From: a bacterium
GTDB taxonomy: Bacteria > Patescibacteriota > Minisyncoccia > Phycocordibacterales > UBA2100
Reading direction: 5' to 3'
Assembly: GCA_021781955.1 (NCBI GenBank)
Contig: JAJXVV010000002.1
Location: 10,730-74,729, forward strand
Length of the DNA stretch: 64,000 nucleotides
The notes below the pieces were generated by a model that saw only the letters and a list, made by a program, of their open reading frames with translations, made no database searches and was not told the origin of the DNA. A program made the translations under genes and the position numbers. Position 1 is the stretch's first letter; every line of letters starts with the position of its first letter. This document shows positions 17,887 to 63,591 of the stretch, one piece after another.

Positions 17887-17888
17887 GT

Positions 17889-48271: not shown

Positions 48272-48342
48272 TGCGGGATCGTCTAATGGTAGGACATCTG
48301 CCTCTGGAGCAGAGTATCTTGGTTCGAGTCCAAGTCCCGCAG
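48272..48342 (+). tRNA. tRNA-Gln (anticodon CTG)
   Basis: U1-A72 acceptor TGCGGGA/TCCCGCA, anticodon stem TCTGC/GCAGA loop CTCTGGA, T-arm CTTGG-TTCGAGT-CCAAG. Confidence 0.85.
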
Positions 48343-49941
48343 CAATCGTGGATTTTGAGAGTAGATTTCTCCCAAATCCCTTGCAACACCAACGTCTTTT
48401 GGCGGTTCTAACGCTGCCGTAATGCGCCGCACTTCATCGGCAGAGTTTCGTATCGGGAACAGTAGATTATCCAAAGAAATCGTGAGTTTTCCGTCCTTTA
48501 GTGTGTAGTCCGAACCCAAGGCGTTGAATATGTCCCGTTTTACCTCAAGGAGCTGTTTTTGCTGTGCCTTGTTGAATACGGCCACGGATGTCTCCGCGAA
48601 GTTGAACCCGCGCTCGGCAATCTCCAACCAGTTCTCAACGCGCTTGTCCGTGTCTTTGAGGTATGCCCACAAACGGTTTTTCTCGGCGAGCAATATCTCC
48701 TTGCGCTCTCGAAACTCACGCTCGTCAATCTCGCTGTTGGCTCGCATATCAATCAGGTTATCTATCTTGCGAACGCAAGCGTCGTACTCGCGGCGCTGGT
48801 TGCCGCTTATCTTTTCTCGGTCTTCAACCTCCTGCGCGTTCATCTCTTTGAGTCGCGCCACTGCCCACTTCTTGAAGTCAGCGGGGATTTGGAGCGCCGC
48901 AAGTTCTTTGGCGATTTGCTTCTCAAGCTCTTTCTCCTCGATGGAGAGTTGCGAGCAGTTCGGGTACTTCCGCTTGGTGCAGTGGTAATAGGTGTAATGC
49001 GCGACTCCGCCCTTGGCGAGCTTCTTGAGCTTTTCCTCGGCGGTGATGAGTGCCCCGCACTCGCCGCAGTGTATCGGACCGCGATACACGAGGTCGTGCC
49101 TTGAGTGCGGGCGCGGATTTCCTTTTCTGCCGAGCAAGAACTGGATGCGGTCGTACTCATCACGGGTCATAAGCGGCTCGTGCGTCCCCGTGTACCAAAG
49201 GCCGCTGCCGACAGGGTATTCAAACTCTCCGTAGTAGAACGTCCGCGTGAACAGATTGTAAATGCTGCTCCGCGCCATTTTCTTGCCGTTCGGTCCGCGA
49301 AAACCCCACTCCTCGTTCGCAATCTCAAGTATCTGGGGCGGCGTGTAGTTGCCCGTGAGCATCAAGTCCACCATGCGGCGCAGGAGCGGAAAACGCTCTT
49401 TGTCGGTATAAACCTTTTTCTTGCCGCGCTCCTCGTATTTGTCATTGAGATAGCCGATAGGGGCAGGTGCGGGGTAAGTGCCCATCTTCGCTTTCTGCTC
49501 AAGCCCGCGCTTCACGTCGCGCCCTTTCTTCGCACTCTCGTATTGCGACTGCGACAATGCCATTTGTAGCATCCAAATGCCCTCGGGCGAGTTGTTCTCA
49601 AAGTGATAAGTCGCAAACTTGAGGTCGCTGATTTCACCCGTGCGGAGCATATAGGTGAGGGAGCTTGCGTCCACCTCATTGCGCGAGAGACGGTCTGGGT
49701 GCCATGCGAGAAGTCCTTGGCGCTCACCGCTACGGGTACGCAAAAGCATATCGCTGAACTTTGGACGATTGTGCGGGATGAACGCGCTACGCTCTTCCTC
49801 CACAAACTCAATATCCAAATCCCCGAACATCTCTATGAGCTTTGCTCGCTGCGCGGGGATGGAGAGCGCTTGCTTTTCTTTATCCTCCGATGATTTGCGG
49901 AGATAGGCAAAGTATTTGATTTTGTCTTTGTTTTTATTCAT
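48283..49941 (-). CDS. large serine recombinase (resolvase N-domain + recombinase domain + Zn ribbon)
   Basis: start MNKNKDKIKYFAYLRKSSEDKEKQALSIPAQ (catalytic Ser region), CxxC pairs (HCGECG..., YYHCTKRKYPNCS), C-terminal coiled coil; last ~19 codons antisense to tRNA-Gln. Confidence 0.8.
   Translation of the reverse strand: MNKNKDKIKYFAYLRKSSEDKEKQALSIPAQRAKLIEMFGDLDIEFVEEERSAFIPHNRPKFSDMLLRTRSGERQGLLAWHPDRLSRNEVDASSLTYMLRTGEISDLKFATYHFENNSPEGIWMLQMALSQSQYESAKKGRDVKRGLEQKAKMGTYPAPAPIGYLNDKYEERGKKKVYTDKERFPLLRRMVDLMLTGNYTPPQILEIANEEWGFRGPNGKKMARSSIYNLFTRTFYYGEFEYPVGSGLWYTGTHEPLMTRDEYDRIQFLLGRKGNPRPHSRHDLVYRGPIHCGECGALITAEEKLKKLAKGGVAHYTYYHCTKRKYPNCSQLSIEEKELEKQIAKELAALQIPADFKKWAVARLKEMNAQEVEDREKISGNQRREYDACVRKIDNLIDMRANSEIDEREFRERKEILLAEKNRLWAYLKDTDKRVENWLEIAERGFNFAETSVAVFNKAQQKQLLEVKRDIFNALGSDYTLKDGKLTISLDNLLFPIRNSADEVRRITAALEPPKDVGVARDLGEIYSQNPRLLRDLDSNQDTLLQRQMSYH
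48328..48344 (+). repeat. attL core (tRNA-Gln 3' end)
   Basis: identical 17-mer repeated at 62081. Confidence 0.65.
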
Positions 49942-49966
49942 ACAAAAACCCGAAAGGGACGGTCTG

Positions 49967-50078
49967 GTTGACCCGATATGAGCAATCGCGGGGATTGAAC
50001 AGCATAGCGGCAGACCGCCCCTCTCGGGCAACTATACCGTTCAACAAAAAATCCTCGCGTCTTCGCATATCGGGTCAA
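49967..50078. promoter_or_regulatory. 14-bp perfect inverted repeat pair upstream of recombinase gene
   Basis: GTTGACCCGATATG (49967-49980) and CATATCGGGTCAAC (50065-50078). Confidence 0.35.
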
Positions 50079-50086
50079 CATAAGCA

Positions 50087-51268
50087 TTATATGCCACTTT
50101 CCAGCAAGGCCAAAGTGATAAGAGTGAACTTCTCAAGCTCGCCATCCACGAAAGCGATGCAGTTTGAATAGGGCAATCCGCTCGTAAAATCAGCCGCTGT
50201 TCGCATTTTGCGCGTGAGCCGTTCCGAGTGGTCCGTGCTCCATATCCCGAATATCACGCGGCGAACTTCTTTTGCTCCATGTTCGCGTATCGCTTGTGCG
50301 AGGCCGTATGAGGTCAAAGCGTTGTTCAAGGAGTGCGCCGAGCTATGTTCTTTCGCTTTTGTAAGGATGTGCAGAAGCAAACCGAGTTTGTCGGAAGGAC
50401 CGAGTAGCGCGAGCTGGTTTTCAGGACGCTGTATGAGAACGCGCCACGAGTTGACGACCATGCTCTTACACAGGTCTGGAATGAACAGGTCGCTGAACAC
50501 AATGGGCGTTTTGGCATCCCTCCCAAGAAGTGTGTTCACTTCGCGCATGACCGTTTGCATTTTCTTGATGCGATATTCGTAGCGAAACACCTCCTTTTGC
50601 CGCAAACCGTAGCGCTCTATGACCTCGCGCTCGGGACTGATACGCCATTTATCCTTACGTTTATTCTTGGGGCGCATGGCGTCCGAGACCTTATCGTAAA
50701 AGGCGCGGTCAATCGTTCCAGCGTAGATGTTGAGTACCCGCCCACCTTGCTTGTGCTGGGTACTCGTTACGTCTACCACCTTGCTGATATCCACCCGCAT
50801 CAGCTCATCCAACACCTCCTGCATCCTGATTGCTTTGGGCAGAGGGACGTTCTTGCAAAAATGGACGGCCGCGACGCGGGCACTTTCTATCACGTCGCTT
50901 TTGACATAGACGCCGACATCCTCAAGACCTGCTTTGAGCGCCTGTATCGTTTTGATTTTGTCCGTATGCGTTGCCTCCTGCAAGCTGTCGCCAAAGAGCA
51001 GTTTGGGGACGGAAAAGGTAATCATCAAAACGTACTGAACTGCCTTGCGTTCTTTCGCCAGCGTCTCGAACATTTCGACTTTGGGGCGGTAGAAATGCTG
51101 ATGTTTTGGGCGCAGCACGAAATGTCGCAGATACGGATGCACGGACTGCTGCTCTGACGGCGTGAGGTCTTGGTAGGTGCGGCTTTTTATCAGCTCTGGC
51201 ACCCAGAGTGTTTTGTCCTGAACCCTGAACGTATCGCGTCCGTAGATTTTGAGAATGATGGTATCCAT
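50087..51268 (-). CDS. putative rolling-circle replication initiator (Rep_trans/RepC-like)
   Basis: 393 aa; RVDISKVVD and AFYDKVSD...WRISPE...FRYEYRIKK resemble Rep_trans conserved blocks (recalled from memory, not searched). Confidence 0.35.
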   Translation of the reverse strand: MDTIILKIYGRDTFRVQDKTLWVPELIKSRTYQDLTPSEQQSVHPYLRHFVLRPKHQHFYRPKVEMFETLAKERKAVQYVLMITFSVPKLLFGDSLQEATHTDKIKTIQALKAGLEDVGVYVKSDVIESARVAAVHFCKNVPLPKAIRMQEVLDELMRVDISKVVDVTSTQHKQGGRVLNIYAGTIDRAFYDKVSDAMRPKNKRKDKWRISPEREVIERYGLRQKEVFRYEYRIKKMQTVMREVNTLLGRDAKTPIVFSDLFIPDLCKSMVVNSWRVLIQRPENQLALLGPSDKLGLLLHILTKAKEHSSAHSLNNALTSYGLAQAIREHGAKEVRRVIFGIWSTDHSERLTRKMRTAADFTSGLPYSNCIAFVDGELEKFTLITLALLESGI

Positions 51269-51292
51269 AATGATTTTTGTTGGCGGTGTATT

Positions 51293-51472
51293 TCAAGGAA
51301 CCCTACGGGGTTCTGGCACGGTGTTTTGTGCGGCCGCGGCGCGGCTCACGACTTCGACCAAGCGGATGAGGCGCAGGGCTTTTTCAAGTGCCTGCGCTTT
51401 CGTGATGTCTGTTCCAAAGTGCTTTTTGTAGAGCGCTTGAAACTCGGCGATATGTTCATCCGCGATGACCAT
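51293..51472 (-). CDS. small hypothetical ORF (59 aa)
   Basis: MVIADEHIAEFQALYKKHFGTDITKAQALEKALRLIRLVEVVS...; fills gap between flanking genes. Confidence 0.2.
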   Translation of the reverse strand: MVIADEHIAEFQALYKKHFGTDITKAQALEKALRLIRLVEVVSRAAAAQNTVPEPRRVP

Positions 51473-51477
51473 AACGC

Positions 51478-51744
51478 CTATTCGCTGTAGAGACGGTTCT
51501 TGAGCATCTTGGTCGCGTCAAAGTAAGTTCGTGCCTTCACTTCAAGGCGGTCCGCCCAGTACGCATCAATCACGGCGTCAATGCCGTCTGCGCGTCGGAA
51601 AACGAACTGGACTTTCTGCAAGTTCCCGCGGTCCAACGAGACAAGAGAAAAGCCAACGCTCACGAGCGCGGCTGATAAACCGAGGTCAAACGTGTAGAAG
51701 AAGCTGTTGTGGTCTTCTGGTGAAGCACCCGATTTCTTTTTCAT
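51478..51744 (-). CDS. DUF5659-like small phage-associated protein
   Basis: FYTFDLGLSAALVSVGFSL...VQFVFRRADGIDAVIDAYW pattern. Confidence 0.35.
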   Translation of the reverse strand: MKKKSGASPEDHNSFFYTFDLGLSAALVSVGFSLVSLDRGNLQKVQFVFRRADGIDAVIDAYWADRLEVKARTYFDATKMLKNRLYSE

Positions 51745-51812
51745 AGTAATGGCGATTTAGGTTCTTGTAATGTCGCTCGTAGAAATAGGGTGAAATCTCA
51801 CCAAACGAAAAA

Positions 51813-51832
51813 TGCTTGGCTGTTCTGCCAAG
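51813..51832 (-). terminator. hairpin + T-run after 51882..53711 gene
   Basis: GCTTGGC-tgttct-GCCAAGC then (minus strand) CATTTTT. Confidence 0.45.
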
Positions 51833-51881
51833 CGATTGCGGGCTATTTGCGATGCCAGTGATTTAGGGTGAAATCACTGCG

Positions 51882-53711
51882 CTACTCGTCTTCAGTCAAA
51901 AGTTCATACCGCTCGCGGGGCGAGCCGCTTTCTGTGCTGGGTGGGATGAGAGCGATTTTTATCCTGTAGGTGCGGCTGTCAGTCGGCTCGTGGAACGGGT
52001 CGGTATCGTTTTTGAAAATCGCCTTGAGGCGGCTTGCGAGCTGGAGTTTGTGCTGCTTTATGGTGTCGGGGATTGGAGTAGGCAGCGGCTTCGTCTCACC
52101 GTTGTTCCGCGCCAAGCCGAGCAAGAACGCCCATGCGCTATTTGGTTTGCTACGTTTTTCGTCGGAGAAACCGAGCGCTTCGTAATCAACCGATACCTGT
52201 TCCTTCTTGTCGGCCGTGATGAGCACGTTTCGCTCGTCAATAAAGCGTATCGTTATCTTTGCCCACTCGGTCGGCTTGAACTTGGGTAGGTGCAAACGCT
52301 TGTTGCCTTTTACGATTGGTGCATCGTCCAAATTGCGTACCTGCAACTCGGGCATTTTCGTTATTTCAAGTTTGACGGTCGGCTCGGTTTTAGCTGCATC
52401 TGCACCTTTGCGTTGCGCCGCGATTTTGGACAGGTGAAGCATCGCGTCTCCGATAACTTCCTGTATCTTGGGATCAGAAATCACCTCGGGCGAACCTGCG
52501 GTCTGGCACACGTCCTCTATTCGCCCGAGCACCGCGTTCATCTCGGGTCGTATTTCATCCCAGTGCATCCGCCGACCGTTTTTCTTGAAATCAAGCTCTG
52601 CCGAATACAAGCTCCCGAACGGTATGCCAAAGTTATTTTTCTTATATTCGTCGAAACTGAACACCTCAAACTCGCTGCCATCGCCGCAAAAATCCTTCAG
52701 TTCATCGGCGACTACCTTTGCCAGTTCACCGTAAGCAGTGTTCAGTTCGCGCGATGGCGCAGTCGGGTCCGCGCAAAACGAGGAAACAATGGCTATCAGG
52801 GTCTTGTACGCTTCACGCACAACCGCCAAATGCTCGGCTGCTTTTGGTTGGCGTAGCATGTTCGTTTCGTACTCAACTTGCTCGCTGTACCTCTCGGCCT
52901 CCTCGATGGGGGCATACATCGTCCCACTTACTTCCAAGATGGCTTCCGAGACCTTGAAATCGGGCGGTGCCGCCGCACGCTCTGATTTCTGACGTTCCTC
53001 GGTCGGCTTTACGGGCGGAGCGATTTTCTTTCTCTCCGCCGTGGGTGCTAACTTATATCCGTCGCCGTCGTCCGCAACGGTAATCTCGTAGCCGTCGTAT
53101 TTGAGATACTTGTTGAAATCATCTATGAGTTGGCCGCTTACGCTCTCATCTGCGTTGAAGTTGAGTGGATGCAAGAATGTCGTGATAGCACCACCGAACT
53201 TTTCGCGCTGCTCGGGATTAGGCGAGGTCGCGAGGGCAAGAAACATATTCTGCAACGTGCGCCACTTCGTGTCGGGGTACGGGATGTCGGCGCGAGGGAT
53301 GCCGTAATCAAGCAGTGCGTCTACAAGCTGCGTTCCCGTAAAAGTATCGGCGAGCTTGCGGGCTATGTGCTCAAGCGTCTTGAGCTTTACGGGCGACGGA
53401 TGCGGAGGGAACACCTCCATGAATACACTGTCTTTTTTCTGTTCCAAAATCTTGATGAGCTTCTGCTTTTCCAACTGCTGGAGAATGTCTATCTGCTCAT
53501 CTACGGTCATAACGACCACGCTTTTCCTCGGGTTCTTGCTTGTACTCTCGACGCTCTCCCCGTTCGCAAACGCGGCAAAGAAATCGTCAAGGTCGCTGCC
53601 AATCTCCTGTTCTACGGGAAGCAGTCGGTAATCGGCAAAGCCCAAGCCATTCAGCCTCTCTTTTTCATACACGCGCTCGCGAACCCACTTTATTTTCTCG
53701 TCGGTAGTCAT
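51882..53711 (-). CDS. large orphan protein (609 aa) of unknown function
   Basis: long ORF with no stops, normal amino-acid composition, no motif I recognise (no P-loop, no nuclease box). Confidence 0.4.
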   Translation of the reverse strand: MTTDEKIKWVRERVYEKERLNGLGFADYRLLPVEQEIGSDLDDFFAAFANGESVESTSKNPRKSVVVMTVDEQIDILQQLEKQKLIKILEQKKDSVFMEVFPPHPSPVKLKTLEHIARKLADTFTGTQLVDALLDYGIPRADIPYPDTKWRTLQNMFLALATSPNPEQREKFGGAITTFLHPLNFNADESVSGQLIDDFNKYLKYDGYEITVADDGDGYKLAPTAERKKIAPPVKPTEERQKSERAAAPPDFKVSEAILEVSGTMYAPIEEAERYSEQVEYETNMLRQPKAAEHLAVVREAYKTLIAIVSSFCADPTAPSRELNTAYGELAKVVADELKDFCGDGSEFEVFSFDEYKKNNFGIPFGSLYSAELDFKKNGRRMHWDEIRPEMNAVLGRIEDVCQTAGSPEVISDPKIQEVIGDAMLHLSKIAAQRKGADAAKTEPTVKLEITKMPELQVRNLDDAPIVKGNKRLHLPKFKPTEWAKITIRFIDERNVLITADKKEQVSVDYEALGFSDEKRSKPNSAWAFLLGLARNNGETKPLPTPIPDTIKQHKLQLASRLKAIFKNDTDPFHEPTDSRTYRIKIALIPPSTESGSPRERYELLTEDE

Positions 53712-53940
53712 AGTAATCGTAATGTCCGTAAACTGTACTCTTTGTCTGCATCCCTTTCAATGAGCATGGCGCTTTGGGCAGCAACGCCATATCTGTATAA
53801 CCAAAACGCTTTCGCAGGAGGGTATGATGCGCCGCCTTCAAAAAGACGCTATGATGAAAACACCCAATAAAACAGTATGAGCGGATAAACCATTACATGC
53901 GCCTAAACCTGTGCTGAAAAGCGAGGCATGGCATAAAAAT

Positions 53941-54091
53941 CCACTGCGACATAGAGACGGGCACCCGCCTGCTCACATGTCGCAGTGGTCATAGGTCGAA
54001 AGGCCTGTGTGCGGTCGGAAACGGCCGCGAGCAGAGCGGATGCCCTTTTCTGTGCGTTTTGCTCTGTTAGTTAGTAGAAACCACTGCGACA
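53941..54091. promoter_or_regulatory. three copies of CCACTGCGACA: an inverted pair (53941-53952 / 53977-53988) and a copy abutting the mod start codon (54081-54091)
   Basis: direct reading of sequence; lies in divergent region between 609-aa gene and mod. Confidence 0.4.
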
Positions 54092-54093
54092 AA

Positions 54094-55890
54094 ATGAAAA
54101 ACCAGAGCATTACGATTGCCCAATCAAAAGGGCGGCCGCTTCTCCAATGGGTCGGTAAAAAACCTCTTGAGAGTGTCGAGTTTTATCCCGCGCAAGAAAA
54201 AGAGATTTACGGCGACAAGAACGCTCGCGATTTCGGTAAACTTTTTTGGGGCGACAATCTGCAAGTGCTTTCGCACTTGCTCAAGGAATATCGCGGTGCG
54301 ATTGACCTCATTTATATTGACCCACCGTTCGACAGCAAGGCAGATTATGTGAAGCGCGTCCAGTTGCGTGGCGAGCGCATGGAGGGAACGCAGCAGAGCT
54401 TGATAGAGGAGAAGCAGTACACGGACATCTGGGAAAAGGATGAGTATTTGCAGTTCATATATGAGCGATTTCTGCTGATGCGCGAACTTCTGTCGGATAG
54501 CGGGAGCATATTCGTTCATGTGGATTGGCACAAAAGCTCCTATATCAGATTGATACTGGATGAGGTATTTGGGGCAGACCGATTTGTGAATGAAATCATC
54601 TGGCACTACGCCGATAACTTTCAGGGGAATGTAAGAGGGTTTGCCACGAACCACAACAACATTTTTTGGTACTCAAAAAATGAGAGCTATACGGCCAACA
54701 AGGTGATGGTGGATTTGGGCAAAACCATCAAGCGGGATAAGCGCGTATGGTCGAGAGAAAAACAAACGCTGGTTGCGGCTCGGGATGAAAACGGGAAAAT
54801 CATCTATCAGGACTTTACTGAAAAGAAAGCCGACGACGTTTGGGAAATAGGTCAAAGCTCGACTACGAAGTCGGCGAGCGCCGAGTATCTGGGCTATCCA
54901 ACGCAGAAGCCAGAAGCGCTCCTTGAGCGCATCATACGGGCGGCATCGAATGAAGGAGACCTCGTGGCGGATTTTTTCGTCGGCTCTGGCACGACCTGCG
55001 CTGTCGCCCAGAAGCTCGGGCGCAAATGGATTGGGTGCGACATCAACCTTGGTGCAATACAGACGAGCACAAAGCGACTCAACCAAATCATCGCGGGTCA
55101 GCTCGAAAACAGAACGCTGGATTTCAGGGGCTCGCTCGGTTTCAAGGTATTCAACGTGAACGATTACGACGTGTTCAAAAACGAGTTGGAGGCCAAAGAA
55201 ATCGTGATGGAAATGTATGGGGTCGAGCCAGTGAAGCGTACCTATTTTGACGGCATCCTCGATAAGAACTTCGTAAAGGTGATGCCACTCAACCGTGTGC
55301 TCAACAAAATGGACATCCGTACCTTGCTCAAAACGGTCTCCGAAAAAATGGACACCTTTACCGTCAAGGCGAAATCGAAGTCAGGCGAACCATTATACGA
55401 AGAAGGCGTGTTGATGATTTGCTCGGGCATGGAGCTGGATGTTTTGGACTTCTTGAAAAAGGAAAACAAGACAGGCGTGAGAATAGAGGTGCGCGATATT
55501 CTCATTGATAAGCAAAATCTCATCTTCAAGAAAAAGCCCGAAGCGAGGATTGACGCGCAGATGAAAGACGGAAAGCTCATCGTCGAGTTGAAGGATTTTT
55601 ATTCACCGATACTGATGCGTAAGTTGGAGATTGAAAATGGGAAAGCGCTCAAAAAGGCGACGCGGGCAAAAGTCGGCGACTTCAAGCAAATCATTGATAG
55701 CGTCGCCATTGACGTGGACTATGACGGCAAGCTGTTCAATGCCGAGAAGATGGACTTGCCAGAAAGGGGTGAAGTTATCGCCGCAAAGTATTCATGGGAT
55801 TACGCAAAGAAGGGCAAGCACTGCATTGCCGTGAAAATCATTGATGTGCTCGGCGAGGAGTATTTTGAGACCTTCGAGGTGAGCGCATAG
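54094..55890 (+). CDS. mod: Type III restriction-modification DNA methyltransferase (Mod), beta-class N6/N4 MTase
   Basis: motif IV IDLIYIDPPFDS N-terminal, motif I VADFFVGSGTTCAVAQKLGRKWIGCD C-terminal, TRD between; followed by res. Confidence 0.8.
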   Translation: MKNQSITIAQSKGRPLLQWVGKKPLESVEFYPAQEKEIYGDKNARDFGKLFWGDNLQVLSHLLKEYRGAIDLIYIDPPFDSKADYVKRVQLRGERMEGTQQSLIEEKQYTDIWEKDEYLQFIYERFLLMRELLSDSGSIFVHVDWHKSSYIRLILDEVFGADRFVNEIIWHYADNFQGNVRGFATNHNNIFWYSKNESYTANKVMVDLGKTIKRDKRVWSREKQTLVAARDENGKIIYQDFTEKKADDVWEIGQSSTTKSASAEYLGYPTQKPEALLERIIRAASNEGDLVADFFVGSGTTCAVAQKLGRKWIGCDINLGAIQTSTKRLNQIIAGQLENRTLDFRGSLGFKVFNVNDYDVFKNELEAKEIVMEMYGVEPVKRTYFDGILDKNFVKVMPLNRVLNKMDIRTLLKTVSEKMDTFTVKAKSKSGEPLYEEGVLMICSGMELDVLDFLKKENKTGVRIEVRDILIDKQNLIFKKKPEARIDAQMKDGKLIVELKDFYSPILMRKLEIENGKALKKATRAKVGDFKQIIDSVAIDVDYDGKLFNAEKMDLPERGEVIAAKYSWDYAKKGKHCIAVKIIDVLGEEYFETFEVSA

Positions 55891-55895
55891 TCGCT

Positions 55896-58433
55896 ATGGA
55901 TACTCTCTTTCTCCAAGCAATCCAAAAGCAGGTCGCACAGTGGCGCGACGGCGACTATAGAGGCATTGAGCATGAAACCCGCAACATTCTCTCGCACATA
56001 AAACGTGTCGCGTTTTTGCATCTGCCACAGATTGAAGCTCTGGAAACATACATTTACCTCAAAGAGGTCGTAGGCAACAAACCATCACTTGAGGTATTTC
56101 GGTCCTCATTCGATAGCGAGCTTGAGCTTATACGCGCACTCGGCGTATCGGATAAACTCGCACTTGAGCTTGTGTACGACAAAGAAAAGGACGCAAAAAT
56201 ACAGGCGGCTTTGGAGGAGAAGTTTGGGCGTCTCGATTACGCCAATCAAGTGTACGCACTTACCATGGGTTCAGGCAAAACCATCTTGATGGCTGTAATG
56301 ATGCTCTACGATTTCGTGCTCTCGTACTATCATCCGACGGACGTGCGGTTTGCAAAAAATGCTCTGGTATTTGCTCCCGATACGACCATCATAGAGAGTT
56401 TGAAGGAGATAAAATCGTTCGATTACGCGAAGGTGCTGCCGAAGGAATATGGCGTCGTGCTGCTGAATACCAAATACCACTACCTCGAAAGCACGAGTAC
56501 GCCGCTCCTGCCAATCGGCAACTATAATGTCATTGTCTCAAACTCCCAGAAAATCATCCTCAAGACACGAACCGAAAACCGAAACGGCACGAGTCGTCTT
56601 TTCGGCGATAAGAACGAGCTTGAGCGTCGCGAGGTTGAGAACAGCCGCTTACAGGCGATACGGCAACTATCGCAACTGATGATTTTCGTGGATGAAGCGC
56701 ATCACTCCTACGGCCAGACGCTCGAAGGAACGCTCAAGAAAACGCGACAGACGATTGATTACCTGCATCAGAATACGCCTCTCGTTGCTGTCGTAAATCT
56801 CACGGGTACGCCGTATGTAAATAACGAGATGATTGCTGATGTCGTCTACCACTTCGGTCTCAAGGCGGGTATCGAGCGCGGGATACTCAAGCAGGTTCGC
56901 ATCTTGGATTACGGCAACGTGCGCTCGCAAAAGTTCTTGGAGGAAGTGGTTGATACTTTCGTTGCGGAGTATGGGGAGTGGCGGCTCGAAGGGCGTTTGC
57001 CGAAAATGGCTTTTTACGCAGCGAACATCGCAGACCTGCGACAGGATTTGAAACCGAAGCTGGAGCGCATACTTGCCGAGAAAGGCATCCCACTCGATAC
57101 GGTTCTTGAGTACCATACAGATGCCGAAGAAAACGCCGATGAGTTTCGCAGCTTGGATACGGGCGAAAGCAAAAAGCAGTTCGTCCTGCTTGTCGGCAAG
57201 GGCACGGAAGGATGGAACTGCCGCTCACTCGTTGCAGTCGCACTATACAAAAAACCAAAAAGCACCATTCTCGTGCTTCAATCAACGACGCGCTGCTTGC
57301 GTTCTATAGGCGACAACTCGACGCGGGCGCACATCTTTCTCTCTACCGAGAACTACAAGATACTTGACCGCGAACTGAAAAATAACTTTGCCACGAGTGC
57401 AAGCGAGCTTTCTTCGCAGGACCAGAAAACGGTCGAGCATACTCTCAAGATAGAGAAGCGGAGAACCGTCAAGGTGAAAAAGACATTGAAAGATGTGCTG
57501 GCCGTTCAGAGCGCGGACATGGGCAGTATTCGTATTGATTTCAAGAAGTTCAAACCCGAACTTTACCGCGCGTATGTGAGCGAGGGCGGGATTTTTATCG
57601 GTGAGGAGGGACGAGCGGGGTATCAGGAGACGAAGGCCGTGCGCGGCATCCAAGAGGAAAACGACCTGACTTTTTACGAGATTGTTGGGGTCATAAATCG
57701 TCAAACGCACCTGCCCTGTATTGCTATCGAAAGCGTAATCGTTGGAAGCGGAAAAGAGCGAAACGTATTCGCGAAAGAGGTGAATAAAAATCCCGCGCTC
57801 GTTGCGTTTGCGATACAGGAAATACTCAAGAGCGCCTATCAGTACGAGGAGAGAACCGAGGTTATCGAGGAGGTGCTGGAGCTTACAAAACTGTACCCGT
57901 TCAAAATCAGCGTTCAGCAAAATAGGAACGCTCTTATTGTGTACCGCGAGACCGAGGAGCAGGAAGGCCATAAAGGGCGGCTCGGCTTCCACATCAATCC
58001 GTACAACTTTGATAGCGCAGACGAGAAAGAGTTGTTTCGCTATCTGCGCGGCGTACTCAACACGCGAGAGAGTATCAAAGAAATCTACTTTACGGGCGGC
58101 GCGACCGATACCACACATAACGATTTTTACTTCGAGTATTGGAGTCCCGAAAAACAACGCGTCGCCCGATACTTTCCCGATTTTCTCGTTGAGACGACGA
58201 AAGGCAGGTATTTGGTGGTTGAAACGAAAAGCCCTGCGGAGCGAGCCGACTACGAAGCCAACAAGCGTTCCTATAACGGCAAACTTGAACAGCTCACCAA
58301 TGAGGTGCTCGCAAAAGAGCTTGGCTTCCGTGCGTTCCAAGAAGCGAATAAGGATTTTGAGTATCGCATCACGTTCAACGCAGTACTCCAGCGGGAGCAG
58401 GTAGAGTTGTTTGAAGAGATTGAGCACCTATAA
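55896..58433 (+). CDS. res: Type III restriction enzyme Res subunit (SF2 helicase + endonuclease)
   Basis: Walker A MGSGKTILMA, DEAH-like MIFVDEAHHSYGQ, 845 aa, 6 nt after mod. Confidence 0.8.
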   Translation: MDTLFLQAIQKQVAQWRDGDYRGIEHETRNILSHIKRVAFLHLPQIEALETYIYLKEVVGNKPSLEVFRSSFDSELELIRALGVSDKLALELVYDKEKDAKIQAALEEKFGRLDYANQVYALTMGSGKTILMAVMMLYDFVLSYYHPTDVRFAKNALVFAPDTTIIESLKEIKSFDYAKVLPKEYGVVLLNTKYHYLESTSTPLLPIGNYNVIVSNSQKIILKTRTENRNGTSRLFGDKNELERREVENSRLQAIRQLSQLMIFVDEAHHSYGQTLEGTLKKTRQTIDYLHQNTPLVAVVNLTGTPYVNNEMIADVVYHFGLKAGIERGILKQVRILDYGNVRSQKFLEEVVDTFVAEYGEWRLEGRLPKMAFYAANIADLRQDLKPKLERILAEKGIPLDTVLEYHTDAEENADEFRSLDTGESKKQFVLLVGKGTEGWNCRSLVAVALYKKPKSTILVLQSTTRCLRSIGDNSTRAHIFLSTENYKILDRELKNNFATSASELSSQDQKTVEHTLKIEKRRTVKVKKTLKDVLAVQSADMGSIRIDFKKFKPELYRAYVSEGGIFIGEEGRAGYQETKAVRGIQEENDLTFYEIVGVINRQTHLPCIAIESVIVGSGKERNVFAKEVNKNPALVAFAIQEILKSAYQYEERTEVIEEVLELTKLYPFKISVQQNRNALIVYRETEEQEGHKGRLGFHINPYNFDSADEKELFRYLRGVLNTRESIKEIYFTGGATDTTHNDFYFEYWSPEKQRVARYFPDFLVETTKGRYLVVETKSPAERADYEANKRSYNGKLEQLTNEVLAKELGFRAFQEANKDFEYRITFNAVLQREQVELFEEIEHL

Positions 58434-58438
58434 CTCGC

Positions 58439-58561
58439 ATGGCCGACGAAAAAATAGATACGCCTTTGGATGAAAAAGATATAGCAGAGCTTGCAGAGAT
58501 TTTTGACCTGCTCGCGCAATGGGATGTCGAGGACAAACGCGATGAGCGAAATAAATCCTGA
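58439..58561 (+). CDS. small acidic ORF (40 aa)
   Basis: MADEKIDTPLDEKDIAELAEIFDLLAQWDVEDKRDERNKS; overlaps next ORF by 20 nt. Confidence 0.2.
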   Translation: MADEKIDTPLDEKDIAELAEIFDLLAQWDVEDKRDERNKS

Positions 58562-58742
58562 TATGCTCTCGATAGAGGATTTGCGAAAGACGCTCCTCGA
58601 CGAGGAAAGGTATAAGTACACCGATGAGGAGTTGAGGAAAATCAACACACTTCTCGATGCGCTCGCGGACGTGATTTTCGATAAATGGCTCGCCGAAAGA
58701 AACAGCAAGAAGGCCAAAAAAGAGGGAACGGTAAATCATTGA
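58542..58742 (+). CDS. small acidic helical ORF (66 aa), paralog-like to preceding ORF
   Basis: MSEINPDMLSIEDLRKTLLDEERYKYTDEELRKINTLLDALADVIFDKWLAERNSKK. Confidence 0.3.
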   Translation: MSEINPDMLSIEDLRKTLLDEERYKYTDEELRKINTLLDALADVIFDKWLAERNSKKAKKEGTVNH

Positions 58743-58924
58743 CACCACGCCCAAATGTAGTATAATGCTATGCGGTTCTTTGATATTCAACTTGCGTTTG
58801 CCACAGCAGAAAGCAGCTCATCTTTGGGCTTCTCCCTGCTATGGCAAACTCTCAAACACGAGAGCGCCCGCTGGCAGAGCAACACGTTCGCAAGAACACG
58901 TTGCACATACACGAGGAACACGTC

Positions 58925-59494
58925 ATGGCTGACACGTTCGTCATGTCTACCCGCCAAGCGGCGGAACTGGACTACGCCTTCGAGCGGAACGGTTGGACGC
59001 CCGCAGAGGTCAAGCAGCTTTCGAGCGGCGGACTTCTCGCGGACTTCCGCAAGGTTCTGCTCGGCCACGCGGTCATCTCGGTGCCCGAGCACTTGATTGA
59101 CCTCGACGCCGACCCGTTCGTTCCGAACGGCTGGAAGGTCGAGGAGCACCAGAAAGGCGGCCAGTTCAAATGGGACGCCACCAAGGTGAAGCTCCATCTC
59201 TCCAAGAAGCAGCAAGGCGGCAAAGTACTGGAAGGCAATAAGCTCCGCGAGGAACTGAAAGGCCAACCCGTCTACAATGCCAATCTGCTCGACTACCTGC
59301 TCAAGAACCCGCACCTCATTCCCGAGGAGTGGAAGAGCAAGTATGTCTTCTTCTGGGGGACGGTCTACCGCGGCTCGGACGGCGACCTCTGCGTTCGCTG
59401 CCTCTGCTGGAGCGGCGGCGGGTGGCGCTGGGGCTACGGCTGGCTCGGCAGCGACTGGTACGGGAACGACCCCGCTGCGGTGCCCGCAAGTTGA
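58925..59494 (+). CDS. DGR target protein (189 aa) with C-terminal variable region
   Basis: GAGGAA SD before ATG 58925; last ~41 codons are the VR. Confidence 0.7.
   Translation: MADTFVMSTRQAAELDYAFERNGWTPAEVKQLSSGGLLADFRKVLLGHAVISVPEHLIDLDADPFVPNGWKVEEHQKGGQFKWDATKVKLHLSKKQQGGKVLEGNKLREELKGQPVYNANLLDYLLKNPHLIPEEWKSKYVFFWGTVYRGSDGDLCVRCLCWSGGGWRWGYGWLGSDWYGNDPAAVPAS
59366..59489 (+). repeat. DGR variable region (VR)
   Basis: 124 bp, 103/124 identical to TR with no indels; all 21 differences at TR adenines. Confidence 0.85.
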
Positions 59495-59547
59495 ACTATG
59501 GACTTGGTGCCTTGGGTTTTGTTTGACCCTTTGCACCTTGCCCTTTG

Positions 59548-59589
59548 CCCCGCGTTGTCTGAAATATGACAGCGCGGGGTTTTGTTTTG
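59548..59589 (+). terminator. GC-rich hairpin + T-run 54 nt after VR (terminator and/or DGR target-recognition hairpin)
   Basis: CCCCGCGTTGTC-tgaaatat-GACAGCGCGGGG then TTTTGTTTTG. Confidence 0.5.
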
Positions 59590-59821
59590 ATACAATCCGA
59601 AGCGGAAGTAGGTGAATACGCGGGCGACCACGGTTTCCCGCTACCGAACCCAGTACCCATACATCGAGAGCATCTCCGATTACGGTTTGAGATGGAGTGG
59701 TGGATGGGGCACTACAAAAAGTGAAATAACTTGGTGTGGGGTGCTATGCGAGTTTCGCTCGCGGATACGATACAGCCCGAGACCTCCAATCGGGCAGTGG
59801 CACGGACGGCATCTCATACGC

Positions 59822-59945
59822 AACCGCAACTCGGACGGCGACCTCTACGTTCGCTACCTCTACTGGAACGGCGACAGGTGGAACTGGAACAACAACTGGC
59901 TCGACAACGACTGGAACGAGAACAACCCCGCTGCGGTGCCCGCAA
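59822..59945 (+). repeat. DGR template region (TR)
   Basis: A-rich (AAC codons in VR frame); see VR. Confidence 0.85.
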
Positions 59946-59966
59946 CTCGCCTCACTTCTCACCCCG

Positions 59967-60314
59967 CTACTTGGCGGGGTTGAGTTTTGTAAGCTGGCCG
60001 TTCCAGCCGCCGAGCATCTTGCCGACCTCTTCCACTCTCACAGAGAGCGCGGCATATTTTCTGTTGTCGAGCGATTTCGTTTCCCAGAGCACCATGAGGA
60101 GCACTTTCAGCGTGTCCGTCTTCCTGATTGCGAGCCGCACATACGGCCGCTTCTCGTCGCGTGCAAGAAAGCTGGCAGATGCTATCGTTTCCATGATTTC
60201 CACAAACAATGTATCAACGCGCTGTCCAAGTGAGTGTCTGTGAGCTTTCGGTAAGGCCTGATAGTAGCCGTACCACATCAAGTACGCGCTTTTTACTTTC
60301 TGTAGCAACGGCAA
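59967..60314 (-). CDS. avd: Avd-family accessory variability determinant (four-helix bundle / 23S-IVS protein family), opposite strand to TR and RT
   Basis: C-terminal EEVGKMLGGW aligns with Bordetella phage bAvd AEVGRILGSW as recalled from memory; annotated start is TTG at 60314, first ATG at 60278. Confidence 0.6.
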   Translation of the reverse strand: MPLLQKVKSAYLMWYGYYQALPKAHRHSLGQRVDTLFVEIMETIASASFLARDEKRPYVRLAIRKTDTLKVLLMVLWETKSLDNRKYAALSVRVEEVGKMLGGWNGQLTKLNPAK

Positions 60315-60321
60315 GAGCCGC

Positions 60322-60333
60322 GGGGGGGGGGGG
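60322..60333. repeat. G12 homopolymeric tract in divergent avd/RT intergenic region
   Basis: cgGGGGGGGGGGGGtgg read directly; 14 nt before RT ATG. Confidence 0.8.
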
Positions 60334-60346
60334 TGGCTTCAATGAT

Positions 60347-61360
60347 ATGGCCGTCCAAAAGTTCACTCATACATATCGGAGTATAGCTTCGCTTTCAAAC
60401 CTTCTCGAAGCATGGAAAGAGTTTGTGCGCGGCAAGCGGCATCGTGCGGACGTACAGGAGTTTGAGCTAAATCTGATGGGCAACGTCCTATCGCTACACA
60501 GCGACCTCACGGCAAAAACCTACAAGCACTCACCGTATGAGGCGTTCAACATTTCGGACCCGAAGCCACGCAACATCCACAAAGCCGCAGTGCGCGACCG
60601 TCTGCTCCACCACGCGCTCTACCGAAAGCTGTATCCGTTTTTCGATAAGACGTTCGTACCGCACTCGTATTCGTGTAGGAGAGGCAAGGGCGGCCATAAA
60701 GCACTCGACTGCTTCCGTAGATTTGCGTATCAGGTATCGCGCAACCACACACGCACGGTCTGGGTGCTGAAGTGCGACATCCGCAAGTTCTTTGCCTCGA
60801 TTGACCATGCGTGCCTTACCGCCATACTGCGGCGCTCTATCGAGGACGAGGATATTCTCTGGCTCTTGTCTCAAATCATCGAGAGTTTCTATTCGACCGA
60901 GAAAGGCGTCGGTCTGCCGCTCGGCAATCTCACCTCGCAACTTCTGGTGAACGTCTACATGAATGAGTTTGACCACTATGTAGCGCGACAACTCCGCATA
61001 CAGCACTACATCCGATACGCAGATGATTTCGTTTTCATGTCCGCCGACAAGCAAGGGCTGATAGAGCTTCTCCCGAGCATACGGGATTTTCTGTGGAACG
61101 AACTGCGGCTCACGCTGCATCCCGATAAGGTTTCTCTACGCACTGTCGCCTCGGGTGTGGATTTTCTCGGATGGGTGCATTTTCCAGACCATCGGGTGCT
61201 GCGTACAACGACGAAAAAGAGAATGTTCCGAGGCATCAGGGCGCAAGAGGGTAAAGAGGAAACGGTGCAGTCCTATTTCGGACTGATGAGCCACGGCAAT
61301 GCAAAGAAACTGCGGCGAGAGGTCGAAGATGAACTGGATGAAATGAAGAACGGCCTATAA
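60347..61360 (+). CDS. DGR reverse transcriptase
   Basis: YIRYADDFVF (YxDD) and LGNLTSQLLVNVYMNEF (DGR-RT-specific I/LGxxxSQ motif); 337 aa. Confidence 0.85.
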   Translation: MAVQKFTHTYRSIASLSNLLEAWKEFVRGKRHRADVQEFELNLMGNVLSLHSDLTAKTYKHSPYEAFNISDPKPRNIHKAAVRDRLLHHALYRKLYPFFDKTFVPHSYSCRRGKGGHKALDCFRRFAYQVSRNHTRTVWVLKCDIRKFFASIDHACLTAILRRSIEDEDILWLLSQIIESFYSTEKGVGLPLGNLTSQLLVNVYMNEFDHYVARQLRIQHYIRYADDFVFMSADKQGLIELLPSIRDFLWNELRLTLHPDKVSLRTVASGVDFLGWVHFPDHRVLRTTTKKRMFRGIRAQEGKEETVQSYFGLMSHGNAKKLRREVEDELDEMKNGL

Positions 61361-61480
61361 AAGCTGTTTTTCCACACCCTCATTGCACGTTCATCCTCCG
61401 TAGCTTATACTTTGCCTGTGCTTGTGGGGCGTCAGCCCTATTCGGCTACATCGTAAGCCGAAGGCGAGCACATCAAAGAG

Positions 61481-61505
61481 CGCCACCGAAGGGTGGTGTT
61501 TTTTG
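61481..61505. terminator. intrinsic terminator after RT (bidirectional with 61510..61989)
   Basis: CGCCACC-gaag-GGTGGTG + TTTTTTG. Confidence 0.55.
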
Positions 61506-61509
61506 TTGG

Positions 61510-61989
61510 CTAATCCTCATCGGGATTGCCTTTCATCGTGCTGATGAGCTTCATGTCGCGGTATTTGTTCGTAATCCAAGCGGGCACGATGCTCCAAAAG
61601 TGGAGCTGGCCGTTGTCGCCGATTTTCCGCACGATAACTTTTATCTTGCGCCCATCAATGATGGCGATGATGCCCCAGTATTTTACGGGCTTGCTTTTGC
61701 GGACGGGCTTCTTGTGGCTTTTCATCTCAAACTCCTTGAGCGTCTCCTCGTACTCTTGGTAGGTCGTCGAACGCTCCACGAGCTTCACAGCCCGCGATAG
61801 GAGCTTGAAGCGGAGTATCTGCGACGGGCGCTCGCGTTCGCTGCGCGAACCCTTGAATACAATGTGATTGAAGCCCTCGGCGGTGAAGTGGACGTAATCG
61901 TTCAGCGCGGGCGAGAACACGGGACCGATGCTGTGGTAGAACTTTTGCGCGTCGGCGCGGAGCTTTTCGTAGTTGGATACGTCTTCCAT
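61510..61989 (-). CDS. hypothetical protein (159 aa)
   Basis: clean ORF convergent with RT; no recognised motif. Confidence 0.35.
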   Translation of the reverse strand: MEDVSNYEKLRADAQKFYHSIGPVFSPALNDYVHFTAEGFNHIVFKGSRSERERPSQILRFKLLSRAVKLVERSTTYQEYEETLKEFEMKSHKKPVRKSKPVKYWGIIAIIDGRKIKVIVRKIGDNGQLHFWSIVPAWITNKYRDMKLISTMKGNPDED

Positions 61990-62080
61990 TGCGAGCAGTT
62001 TACACCGCCGCCATCAAATCTGGTATAGCGATTTTGTACCTGAAATCCGATTTTCCACCCAAAAGTACGGTTCTAACTTC

Positions 62081-62193
62081 GTCCAAGTCCCGCAGCAGTC
62101 TAGTTTAGTATCGATGGACCAAGAGTCGTCTCATATTTTGAGCCGTGTTTTTTGGATGCCCGATTTTAGTCCAAGAGGGGTCAAAAGTGCGAC
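62081..62193 (+). repeat. attR core (17 bp identical to tRNA-Gln 3' end) plus ~95-bp adjacent repeat unit, copy A
   Basis: GTCCAAGTCCCGCAGCAgtctagtttagtatcgatggaccaagag... Confidence 0.65.
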
Positions 62194-62265
62194 TCCAGGT
62201 TTTGAGCCATAAAAGTGGTTCGAGTCTTAGAAAGGTCATTTTGTGTGCAGTGGTATGATTCCGGC

Positions 62266-62964
62266 ATGCAACTAAAGGTTCCCTCTTGGAATATTTGGAT
62301 AGACGGACATTTTGATAGCATCAAAGATTTTCTTCGGGATGCGGATGCCGACATCATCGGGCTTCAAGAGGTGAAAGACGATGACCCGGAGCGTGACGTC
62401 ATCGGGTACCTTACCGAATTAGGCTACCAGCACGTCTTCACGCCCGTAGCAAAGAAATGGAAGGATAAGGTATATAGAGACGGGTGTGCAGTGTTTAGTA
62501 AGCACGAGATTGTCTCCTCCATGGTGCACAAACTATCCGAAAAAGACAGCAGATACGCGCAGCAGGCCGACGTAAAGATAAATGGTTCGATCCTGCACGT
62601 GTTTAGCACTCACCTCATCCACACTCACCAAAAGCCCTCCGAGGTTCAAGAACTCCAGGCAGAAACGCTGGTGGGTATTCTGCCTACAGAGCGAACCATC
62701 GTCATGGGTGATTTCAATGCCACGCCTGATAGCGCCACCATACAAAAGATGAAACGAGACATGTTCTACGATACTGATTCCGCATCCATGCCAACATGGA
62801 GCGTCTACCCGGAGGGGTGCCACATCTGCAACCCTCAAGCAATTGATATAAAACTCGATTACATCTTCGCAAGCAAGGACTTAAAAACAGCCTCGTTCAA
62901 AGTCGAAGAATCGAAAGGTTCGGATCACTTGCCGATCGCGGTTCTCGTGGAGAGAGGGTTATAG
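62266..62964 (+). CDS. endonuclease/exonuclease/phosphatase family protein (second EEP paralog)
   Basis: WNIWIDGH...IIGLQEV and C-terminal GSDHLPI. Confidence 0.7.
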   Translation: MQLKVPSWNIWIDGHFDSIKDFLRDADADIIGLQEVKDDDPERDVIGYLTELGYQHVFTPVAKKWKDKVYRDGCAVFSKHEIVSSMVHKLSEKDSRYAQQADVKINGSILHVFSTHLIHTHQKPSEVQELQAETLVGILPTERTIVMGDFNATPDSATIQKMKRDMFYDTDSASMPTWSVYPEGCHICNPQAIDIKLDYIFASKDLKTASFKVEESKGSDHLPIAVLVERGL

Positions 62965-62990
62965 TTGTAAGACGTAAGAGATAACCTGGT

Positions 62991-63518
62991 ATGAAACTTG
63001 TTTTGCCGTCGGTCGAGTATAAAGTTTCGTTTATTGAAGCAGTGAAAGAATTGCAGAGCGAGACTACCACGATGACCACGCGCAGGTATCGTGAACTTTC
63101 AATCCCCGAACTCGAAGCTGATTTTGAATCGTTCGCGGAAAAAGAGCGCAGTCACGCACGAGGGAAGAATCAGCCCGAGGGCTATGTGCCTCAGTCGGAA
63201 TTCTGGTTCGTCGACGGCGGTGAGTATATCGGGCATGTCGGTATTCGCCATGAACTCAACGAACACCTCAAGACAATCGGTGGACATATCGGTTATAGCA
63301 TTCGTCCTAGCAAGCGCGGTAAAGGATACGGCAATAAAATTCTAGAATTCGCGCTCCCCAAAGCAAAAGAACTTGGAATCAATTGCGTGCTTCTCACATG
63401 CGATGCAACGAACGTTGCCTCGCGCAAAGTCATAGAAAAAAATGGAGGCGTTCTCGAAAATCAGGTGCCGAACCCGCAAACAGGAATCGATAAGCTACGT
63501 TTTTGGATTGATATTTGA
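62991..63518 (+). CDS. GNAT family N-acetyltransferase
   Basis: acetyl-CoA motif A RPSKRGKGYGNKILEFAL and motif B region. Confidence 0.75.
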   Translation: MKLVLPSVEYKVSFIEAVKELQSETTTMTTRRYRELSIPELEADFESFAEKERSHARGKNQPEGYVPQSEFWFVDGGEYIGHVGIRHELNEHLKTIGGHIGYSIRPSKRGKGYGNKILEFALPKAKELGINCVLLTCDATNVASRKVIEKNGGVLENQVPNPQTGIDKLRFWIDI

Positions 63519-63591
63519 CCCCTCTCAGACTCGAACCGAAAATCTGAAACCGAAGCCTAGGTTTTAAAGCACGAAATCGGCATTGGTGAAG

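Follow-up and report, generated by a model that had tools for sequence, protein, structure and literature searches.

An integrative island in a tRNA-Gln gene of a Patescibacteria bacterium, with a probable attachment site inside its large serine recombinase gene

How does a recombinase gene come to end inside a tRNA gene of the opposite strand, and what becomes of the recombinase when the DNA that carries it moves? The question is raised by a locus in a 64,000-nt stretch of Patescibacteria DNA (GenBank assembly GCA_021781955.1, contig JAJXVV010000002.1, positions 10,730 to 74,729), which we call the window and whose own numbering is used below unless another locus is named. In the window, a tRNA-Gln gene with the anticodon CTG (48272-48343, plus strand; detected by ARAGORN) is overlapped by the 3' end of a gene for a large serine recombinase (LSR; 48283-49941, minus strand). 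The analysis presented here makes it likely that both genes stand at one end of a 13,753-bp integrative island of a Paceibacterota/Parcubacteria-type bacterium, that the island was put into the 3' end of the tRNA gene by its own LSR, and that the attachment site of the mobile form (attP) lies within the end of the LSR gene.

The ends of the island are marked by the 17-mer GTCCAAGTCCCGCAGCA, of which the 64-kb window holds only two copies (48328-48344 and 62081-62097), even with up to two mismatches allowed. A twofold occurrence was reached in none of 100 dinucleotide-preserving shuffles. The first copy, the core of the left junction (attL), comprises the 3' strand of the T-stem, the 3' strand of the acceptor stem and the end of the tRNA; the second, the core of the right junction (attR), is a displaced copy of the tRNA 3' end. 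The two start 13,753 bp apart, which gives an island of ~13.75 kb. The integration target is left intact, so that the ends have the layout of Islander-type elements, with the whole tRNA-Gln gene at one end and its 17-bp 3' fragment at the other. The G+C content changes at the tRNA from ~0.62 to ~0.50-0.55. An island bracketed by 17-bp direct repeats at tRNA-Gln had been proposed in the initial annotation, and these data agree with it.

The LSR belongs to a minus-strand ORF that spans 48283-50031; the ATG at 49941, which is the start chosen by gene callers, yields a protein of 552 aa. Its identity as a large serine recombinase follows from three Pfam domains, namely Resolvase (PF00239, 1.1e-18, residues 41-185 of the 582-aa ORF), Recombinase (PF07508, 3.2e-7) and Zn_ribbon_recom (PF13408, 3e-7). 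It also matches a PHROG integrase family (4.7e-63) and has an exact counterpart among known proteins (P0001). In an alignment of 44 homologues, the motifs R15-K16-S17 and S27...Q31 are invariant or nearly so, and the cysteines C292, C295, C321 and C329 are invariant.

The TAG stop codon of the LSR gene (48283-48285) lies inside the antisense tRNA and not ahead of 48345, and the two genes share 58 nt, or 19 codons. The initial annotation had taken about 19 terminal codons to be specified by the tRNA. This holds for the overlap, but only 14 codons differ between the integrated and excised states; the first five or six of the overlapping codons (LLRDLD) are part of the 17-bp repeat and remain unchanged. 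The core corresponds to LSR codons 533-538, which encode L-L-R-D-L-D, and the integrated protein ends in ...SQNPRLLRDLD-SNQDTLLQRQMSYH*, where SNQDTLLQRQMSYH is the 14-residue tail specific to the integrated state. When the circle was simulated in silico, the segment to the left of attR, joined across the repeat, restored in frame a 26-residue tail: the excised protein ends in ...SQNPRLLRDLD-EVRTVLLGGKSDFRYKIAIPDLMAAV*, has 564 aa and stops at 62000-62002. The P arm of attP (62000-62080, minus strand) would accordingly consist of the codons for this native tail together with the stop codon, and it includes a T-loop-like sequence, GGTTCTAAC, at 62069-62077. The stop codon of the excised form is 10 nt ahead of the ATG (61989) of an ORF on the same strand, orf159. 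A longer, different tail after excision had been anticipated, and not only the lengths (564 versus 552 aa) but also the occurrence of this type of tail in homologues agree with that expectation.

To what extent is the native tail conserved? A search of 5.8 billion protein clusters (E<=1e-20) retrieved 1989 homologues of the LSR, and those with names come from Parcubacteria and Sungbacteria metagenome-assembled genomes (MAGs). We sorted the C-termini of 120 homologous proteins into classes. The most frequent are x-S-N-x tails such as DSNQDTLLQRQMSYH or DSNPRPIG (52 proteins), followed by proteins that stop at or just past ...LLRG or ...LLRD (26) and by native-type tails of the form ...LD-[E/D]VRT... 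(19); the other 23 are made up of 19 unclassified C-termini and four fragments. The native-type class agrees with the tail of the excised form, which had been predicted before the homologues were examined.

The closest homologue with a native tail, P0025 (encoded at locus L095), is 76% identical to the LSR of the window. Its tail, EVRTVLLAGKSSFQYKISISELLATV, has the stop codon at the same position and is 69% identical to the tail restored in silico. Over the 26 codons of the tail, the proportions of synonymous (pS) and non-synonymous (pN) differences between the two genes are 0.72 and 0.21, respectively, as compared with 0.65 and 0.18 for the rest of the gene, and the tail pattern 'GKSxFxY' is still present in homologues of ~60% identity. 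The 81 nt to the left of attR (62000-62080) thus appear to evolve as coding sequence. As the reading frame concerned exists only after joining across the core, this argues that 62081-62097 is the true attR, which validates both ends of the island. It also indicates that the joined form (attP) is a state under selection, in independent support of the excised form.

We determined how widely related LSR genes are associated with tRNA genes in a census of 80 loci of species-representative genomes, nearly all of them Patescibacteria MAGs, using ARAGORN and an ORF-extension script. They were picked with peptide patterns drawn solely from its N-terminal and central regions, i.e. those of the LSR. In 55 of the 80 the LSR ORF ends in an antisense tRNA gene (49 loci) or runs through the whole of it (six). 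Five further loci have a T-arm fragment only, nine have a native-type tail without a tRNA gene, the ORF leaves the contig in four, and seven were classed as other. The targets belong to 10 isoacceptor types (Asn 20, His 9, Gln 8, Ser 6, Trp 4, Asp 2, Ile 2, Tyr 2, Lys 1 and Phe 1).

The LSR codons keep one and the same register to the body of the tRNA in all 54 junctions examined. A TGG or xTG codon (W or L) falls on the CCA position or on whatever replaces it, the acceptor strand gives L-R/P-G/D, and the T-loop, GAyTCGAAC, gives D-S-N. Given this fixed register, the x-S-N-x tails of the homologues are antisense tRNA. The length of such a tail is set by the first stop codon encountered; in the closest named relative (L009), which is likewise inserted in a tRNA-Gln gene (ctg), the stop follows immediately after ...LLRD.

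The far ends of three further islands were located by a motif-anchored search, in which ~0.02 such matches are expected by chance. They measure 8,332 bp (L026, tRNA-Lys), 9,959 bp (L036, tRNA-Asn) and 11,515 bp (L048, tRNA-Asp), and their far ends restore in frame the tails NEVRT..., EDVRT... and DGVRT..., respectively. In L036 and L048, attR keeps TGG, i.e. the genomic CCA, and attL has ATG or TTG; integration there would remove the encoded CCA, and the tRNA would then depend on the CCA-adding enzyme.

Insertion at a tRNA 3' end with a fairly long direct repeat is classically the mark of tyrosine integrases (PMC4383910), which raises the possibility that another recombinase, for instance a tyrosine integrase since lost, inserted the island and that the LSR is mere cargo. 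We regard this as very improbable. A domain scan found no tyrosine recombinase domain in any of the island ORFs, which leaves the LSR as the sole recombinase; moreover, LSR genes overlap tRNA genes with a fixed register in 55 of 80 independent loci, and the far end of the island encodes the LSR's own tail.

Which DNA features would such an LSR recognize? The T-loop motif of the tRNA gene, GGTTCGAGT (antisense ACTCGAACC; 48321-48329, plus strand), is proposed to be the zinc-domain motif in the B arm of the chromosomal site (attB). All the other native junctions found (11) have a sequence of the form GT[TC]/TT[TC]-(A/C)GA-AC[CT] at a fixed offset from the core, and three of them read GTTCGAACC, which is the antisense T-loop consensus itself. 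The arginine codon is AGA in eight of the 11, one GC-rich junction among them. Numbered from the CCA position, junctions of the attB type have the T-loop motif at nt 16-24, and those of the attP type have its look-alike at nt 21-29. Thus, both in the window and in the 11 other native junctions, the far-arm motif GTT(A/C)GAACC is exactly 5 bp farther from the core than the TCGAACC of the tRNA. Rutherford et al. (PMC3783163) showed that the zinc-domain motif of the LI integrase occupies bp 16-24 of attP but bp 11-19 of attB, and the 5-bp displacement seen here matches this published attP/attB geometry of serine integrases.

The site of crossover can be bracketed in two ways. The blocks of identity between attL and attR extend over nt 1-17 in the window and over nt 0-9, 2-10 and 2-8 in the three other islands; the four intersect in such a manner that the crossover falls in nt 3-8, within the 3' strand of the acceptor stem. 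Applying the zinc-motif geometry of LI gives a central dinucleotide at 48339-48340 (+/- ~2 bp), with which the bracket agrees independently. We therefore infer that strand exchange takes place in the acceptor stem near these positions.

Two further motif occurrences were noted near the cores. The sequence TTTAGTATC at 62104-62112, in the chromosomal arm to the right of the core, is the zinc-domain motif reported for the Listeria LI integrase (PMC3783163); ~12-20 bp from the inferred crossover and unlike the T-loop motif of the other arm, it is probably a coincidence. In addition, the P-arm motif GGTTCTAAC recurs in direct orientation at 48404-48412, inside the LSR gene and ~60 nt from the core. 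This copy encodes the family-invariant L-E-P (E512), which may reflect a constraint on the protein, on the DNA or on both.

Taken together, these features can be combined into a model. The attP site would lie within the final ~30 codons of the LSR gene, in which the L-L-R-D-L-D codons would double as a copy of the 3' strand of the tRNA acceptor and T-stems, and the E-V-R-T codons as the T-loop-like DNA motif GTTAGAACC. With this motif 5 bp farther from the core than the TCGAACC of the tRNA, the site would have the spacing that, for serine integrases, distinguishes attP from attB. Strand exchange near 48339-48340 would regenerate the tRNA gene. The LSR would retain residues 1-538 and trade its conserved 26-residue tail for 14 antisense-tRNA residues, and the coding sequence of the native tail would be left orphaned at the far end, beside attR.

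Does the exchange of tails matter to the enzyme? An AF2 model of P0025, built from a 40-sequence alignment (mean pLDDT 78), has the domain order of LSRs, with a helical hairpin at residues 347-454 and three C-terminal helices after the zinc-ribbon/coiled-coil region. The swap point, near residue 531, falls within a helix predicted at residues 524-538 (pLDDT ~86). The best PDB matches of the model in Foldseek are the SPbeta, LI/A118, phiC31 and Bxb1 integrases; by sequence, only A118/LI was detected among the solved LSRs, as a very distant relative (E ~4e-5). The phiC31 integrase uses its extreme C-terminus as part of the interface with the recombination directionality factor (RDF), and by analogy a role for the native tail of the LSR is plausible. 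The last residues of the native tail, ...MAAV, bear a loose likeness to degrons of the ssrA type.

The native tail begins within a C-terminal helix that is predicted with confidence, and we see slightly less than an even chance that its loss alters or damps the activity of the integrated LSR. Convergent transcription against the tRNA gene may add to the effect. The tRNA-encoded tails of the relatives range from 0 to ~60 residues without conservation; it is thus the loss of the native tail, and not the gain of a specific new one, that would matter. The same variability, from no residues at all (L009, ...LLRD*) to more than 50, would also be expected if the exchange were a neutral by-product in a compact element that has its attP at its extreme end, with ~26 terminal residues that are dispensable and an LSR that performs alike in the two states. 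That explanation is a quite possible one, and the conservation of E-V-R-T could then be due to a DNA-level constraint on the attP arm (AGA for Arg in 8/11). It accounts less well for what lies beyond E-V-R-T, where synonymous change is saturated, non-synonymous change is low and the stop codon is the same as in the 76%-identical homologue. Nor does it readily explain why 'GKSxFxY' is kept at ~60% identity or why the swap point falls inside a confidently predicted helix.

Is the island still mobile? The initial annotation had suggested that circular junctions and empty sites be sought, and neither turned up. Searches for exact copies of two flanking genes, those for pseudouridine synthase and GNAT, gave occupied loci only and no empty attB, i.e. 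no unoccupied tRNA-Gln site; the closest non-identical homologue of a flanking gene is 71% identical and not syntenic. The exact LSR (P0001) is present on 15 contigs from several samples, integrated in all of them beside the same pseudouridine synthase gene. The 564-aa protein of the excised form was absent from a collection of 15 billion proteins, and a metagenome scan for a circular attP junction with a core-plus-P-arm pattern found only a JGI contig (L179) that is not a circle. As regards the sites themselves, 17 bp of identity is long for a serine integrase, the P'/B' arms have no convincing dyad symmetry with the P/B arms, and an exact-repeat search for attR (>=12 nt) produced a candidate in only one of 48 loci, in which the tail motif was not restored. 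Furthermore, native-tail LSRs also occur inside chromosomal contigs, so that a native tail alone is no proof of a free circle. All these observations weigh against a mobile island with attP in the LSR gene. Simple dyad-symmetry scoring of the reconstructed attB and attP identified no centre.

The finding of nothing but integrated copies in every sample, with neither a circle nor an empty site, is what a fixed fossil would leave, that is, an island whose LSR and repeats are relics and which no longer excises in this lineage. We consider this unlikely. The two 17-bp repeats match perfectly, the LSR has an undamaged ORF with its near-invariant catalytic R-K-S motif and cysteine ligands, the orphan tail arm is still in frame without a stop before the conserved position, and the retroelement carried by the island (see below) is intact, with 20 of 20 differences specific to adenines. 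An LSR-driven island with its attP in the LSR gene remains our preferred reading.

The contig L179 carries, at 851-877, a 27-nt core-plus-P-arm sequence identical to that of the window, where AT-rich and GC-rich DNA meet abruptly. The tail EVRTSLMIAGSLQFALVKSW is encoded there with no LSR upstream, and the junction is the attR-like end of a related but different element. A Logan contig (L093) begins 2 nt before the end of the attR core; it yielded no evidence for an assembly branch.

We considered whether the native-tail LSRs on large contigs are free elements and rejected this idea. In four loci (L024, L042, L067 and L075), a second LSR, of 25-28% identity, abuts a tRNA gene 4-9 kb downstream of the native-tail LSR, and in L095 the native-tail LSR is 6.3 kb from a T-arm-scarred tRNA-Gln gene (ctg). 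The four loci are read as tandem arrays, in which the inner LSR would read into the P arm of the outer element. Such reading works only because the register is conserved, and the low identity between the LSRs of these arrays indicates that even distant clades share the tRNA-end architecture and the register. In L095, T-arm-like fragments (AGGACTCGAACC and GGGACTCGAATTTCG) are found at 17830-17985, just downstream of the 3' end of the tRNA-Gln gene, which is the point of island insertion, and are apparent scars of repeated integration; this genome is syntenic for CTP synthase-FtsX-FtsE.

The gene directly after a native-tail LSR varies: it codes for a PemK toxin or a TrwB/TraG-like coupling protein in two other loci (L095, 11686-12090; L096, 11784-13001), and orf159 follows the native-tail LSR in the circular form of the window. 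With no conserved partner downstream, there is no obvious shared directionality factor. In its broadest form, our proposal would be that a large clade of LSRs mostly from the candidate phyla radiation (CPR) reads the universal T-loop as a zinc motif, hops among at least 10 isoacceptors and swaps its tail through an attP within the ORF, which would provide a built-in switch of activity or directionality without, or alongside, a separate directionality factor. This full version is speculative and, in our estimation, rather doubtful.

Around attL and attR, promoter and terminator scans gave nothing above the shuffle background except a promoter-like site upstream of the LSR gene (50113-50086, minus strand). 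It is located beside a pair of 30-nt inverted repeats, 83% complementary (49967-49996 and 50050-50079), that flank the region just upstream of the LSR start and form a possible operator.

What does the island carry? Next to the LSR gene is orf393 (50087-51268, minus strand); its counterparts in L009 and L013 adjoin the LSR on the upstream side, and the one in L067 is downstream. The initial annotation had labelled it Rep_trans-like, and this label had to be dropped since no such similarity was found in Pfam, even at E<=5, in PHROGs or in NCBIfam. It is followed by genes for an 88-aa DUF5659 protein (51478-51744, minus strand), present in 23 of the 80 related islands, and for orf609 (51882-53711, minus strand), with a sub-threshold AbiJ_NTD3 match. 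Profile searches of Pfam, PHROGs and NCBIfam gave no informative match for orf393, orf609 or orf159; the last of these (61510-61989, minus strand) directly follows the LSR gene in the circular form.

The centre of the island encodes a type III-like Mod DNA methyltransferase (54007-55890, plus strand; N6_N4_Mtase, PF01555, 2.9e-52) and a Res subunit with a ResIII helicase-nuclease domain (55896-58433, plus strand; PF04851, 1.7e-8). The two genes, which the initial annotation had already named, are 5 nt apart and most probably form a type III restriction-modification pair; homologues of Mod or Res are present in several related islands.

The diversity-generating retroelement (DGR) named in the same annotation is likewise confirmed by a reverse transcriptase, an accessory protein and a template-variable region pair with adenine-only differences. 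It comprises a target gene (58841-59494, plus strand) with a variable region (VR) at 59367-59489, a template region (TR) at 59823-59945 (plus strand, from TR-to-VR comparison), a gene for the accessory protein Avd (59967-60314; NF033474, 7.4e-17; phrog_3206, 1.2e-15), whose strand was corrected to minus, and a reverse transcriptase gene (60209-61360, plus strand; RVT_1, 1.4e-21), for which gene callers set the start at 60425. All 20 differences between TR and VR are at TR adenines, and the DGR is intact. Gene calls of the target protein differ in length between samples, with 217 aa in one and 189 aa in others (L004 versus L001), and a Logan contig breaks in the VR region; the VR may therefore be heterogeneous among samples. 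A second Avd-like gene, with a weak bAvd match, was seen ~1-3 kb past the right end of the window (L089, 11794-13740). It is beside ORFs of 218 and 83 aa, with no reverse transcriptase nearby, and could represent what is left of a DGR or another target locus.

PHROG and Pfam scans detected no genes for virion structure or packaging among the island ORFs scanned, and few related LSRs are found on IMG/VR contigs. A prophage was dismissed on these two grounds, and the type III restriction-modification pair and the intact DGR point rather to an island for defence and diversification.

A further correction concerns the DNA to the right of attR, which is not plain chromosome: a second low-GC segment (62098-63591) with flanking repeats of ~110 bp was found there. 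Counted to the end of a degenerate third core, GTCCAAGAGCAGCAGCA (63592-63608), the segment measures 1.5 kb (62098-63608), and it is outside the LSR island. The ~100-110 bp that follow attR (from 62098 onward) are repeated directly after the third core, which heads the right-hand repeat, with 80-87% identity. The G+C content is 0.47-0.50 within the segment and 0.55-0.62 beyond the third core, and the segment contains an Exo_endo_phos gene (62215-62964) and the GNAT gene (62991-63518). Foreign DNA at this tRNA gene thus extends over ~15.3 kb in two units, only the first of which is the LSR island; the second has the look of a separate insertion at this tRNA gene, either older or of another kind. 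The 1.5-kb segment is bracketed by inverted T-arm/acceptor-like fragments, GGTTCGAGTCTTAGAAAGGTCA at 62217-62238 (plus strand) and GGTTCGAGTCTGAGAGGGGTCA at 63516-63537 (minus strand), and GTCCAAGA is present three times to the right of attR. These T-arm-like fragments may be scars of other tRNA-directed events.

If the proposed scheme holds, the native tail would be lost at each integration and restored by excision or by tandem insertion. A whole clade of serine integrases would then target tRNA genes, in a phylum whose mobile elements have barely been described, and the logic of their att sites (T-loop motif, 5-bp shift and acceptor-stem crossover) would be readable from the sequence. The many natural attP/attB pairs, with a near-universal half-site in common and a variable acceptor-stem half-site, would provide a series for studies of specificity and for re-targeting. 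The C-terminal swap poses the testable question of whether the product state of an LSR controls its own activity or directionality. Annotation is affected too: gene calls of integrated LSRs systematically include a pseudo-tail derived from the tRNA, and programs that look for islands by tyrosine integrases alone will miss LSR elements that target tRNA genes.

How, finally, does this island compare with known systems? The LSRs of phages and integrative and conjugative elements (phiC31, Bxb1, A118/LI, SPbeta SprA and TP901-1) have the same order of resolvase, recombinase, zinc-ribbon and long coiled-coil domains; they too are encoded by a single integrase gene at the edge of the element, and, as described for the LI integrase (PMC3783163), the motif of the attP arm is that of attB shifted 5 bp outward. 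However, they target protein-coding or intergenic sites, whereas the LSR of the window targets a tRNA 3' end. The proposed zinc-domain motif of the window is the universal T-loop, the identity block is 17 bp long, and attP would be located inside the integrase ORF, so that the protein is altered on integration; the hosts, moreover, are Patescibacteria. A 2014 paper (PMC4383910) states explicitly that targeting of tRNA genes was not known for serine integrases. A preprint on the tycheposons of Prochlorococcus reports an LSR in 27 of 937 tycheposons and cryptic elements, the attachment sites of which are undescribed. In our full-text search of the literature, neither LSRs of Patescibacteria that target tRNA genes nor an attP inside an LSR gene were described, although such an absence is not proof.

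Further parallels come from tyrosine recombinases. Myxophage Mx8 (summarized in PMC6070905) and the archaeal SSV, both cited in PMC4383910 as having integrases that extend across attP, resemble the window in that they have an attP embedded in the integrase gene, are directed to a tRNA gene and give the int gene a new 3' end when they integrate. The tail swap of the LSR would be the serine-recombinase counterpart of IntP/IntX of Mx8, with a different chemistry and site architecture. The SSV gene is split, whereas the LSR of the window would exchange only its last 26 residues, in a layout conserved across a large LSR clade. Islander tRNA islands share with the window an intact tRNA gene, a displaced 3' fragment, an integrase gene beside the tRNA gene and defence cargo, but that class was defined with tyrosine integrases and this island has an LSR only. 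In engineered integrase-RDF fusions, an attachment at the C-terminus of an LSR can alter directionality; in the window, by analogy, a change of the C-terminus would arise naturally from recombination itself. On the sequence evidence, the island is thus best described as an element of a known kind, a serine-integrase integrative element, with tRNA targeting through a T-loop motif, an attP in the integrase ORF and a product-dependent C-terminus as its unusual, conserved features.

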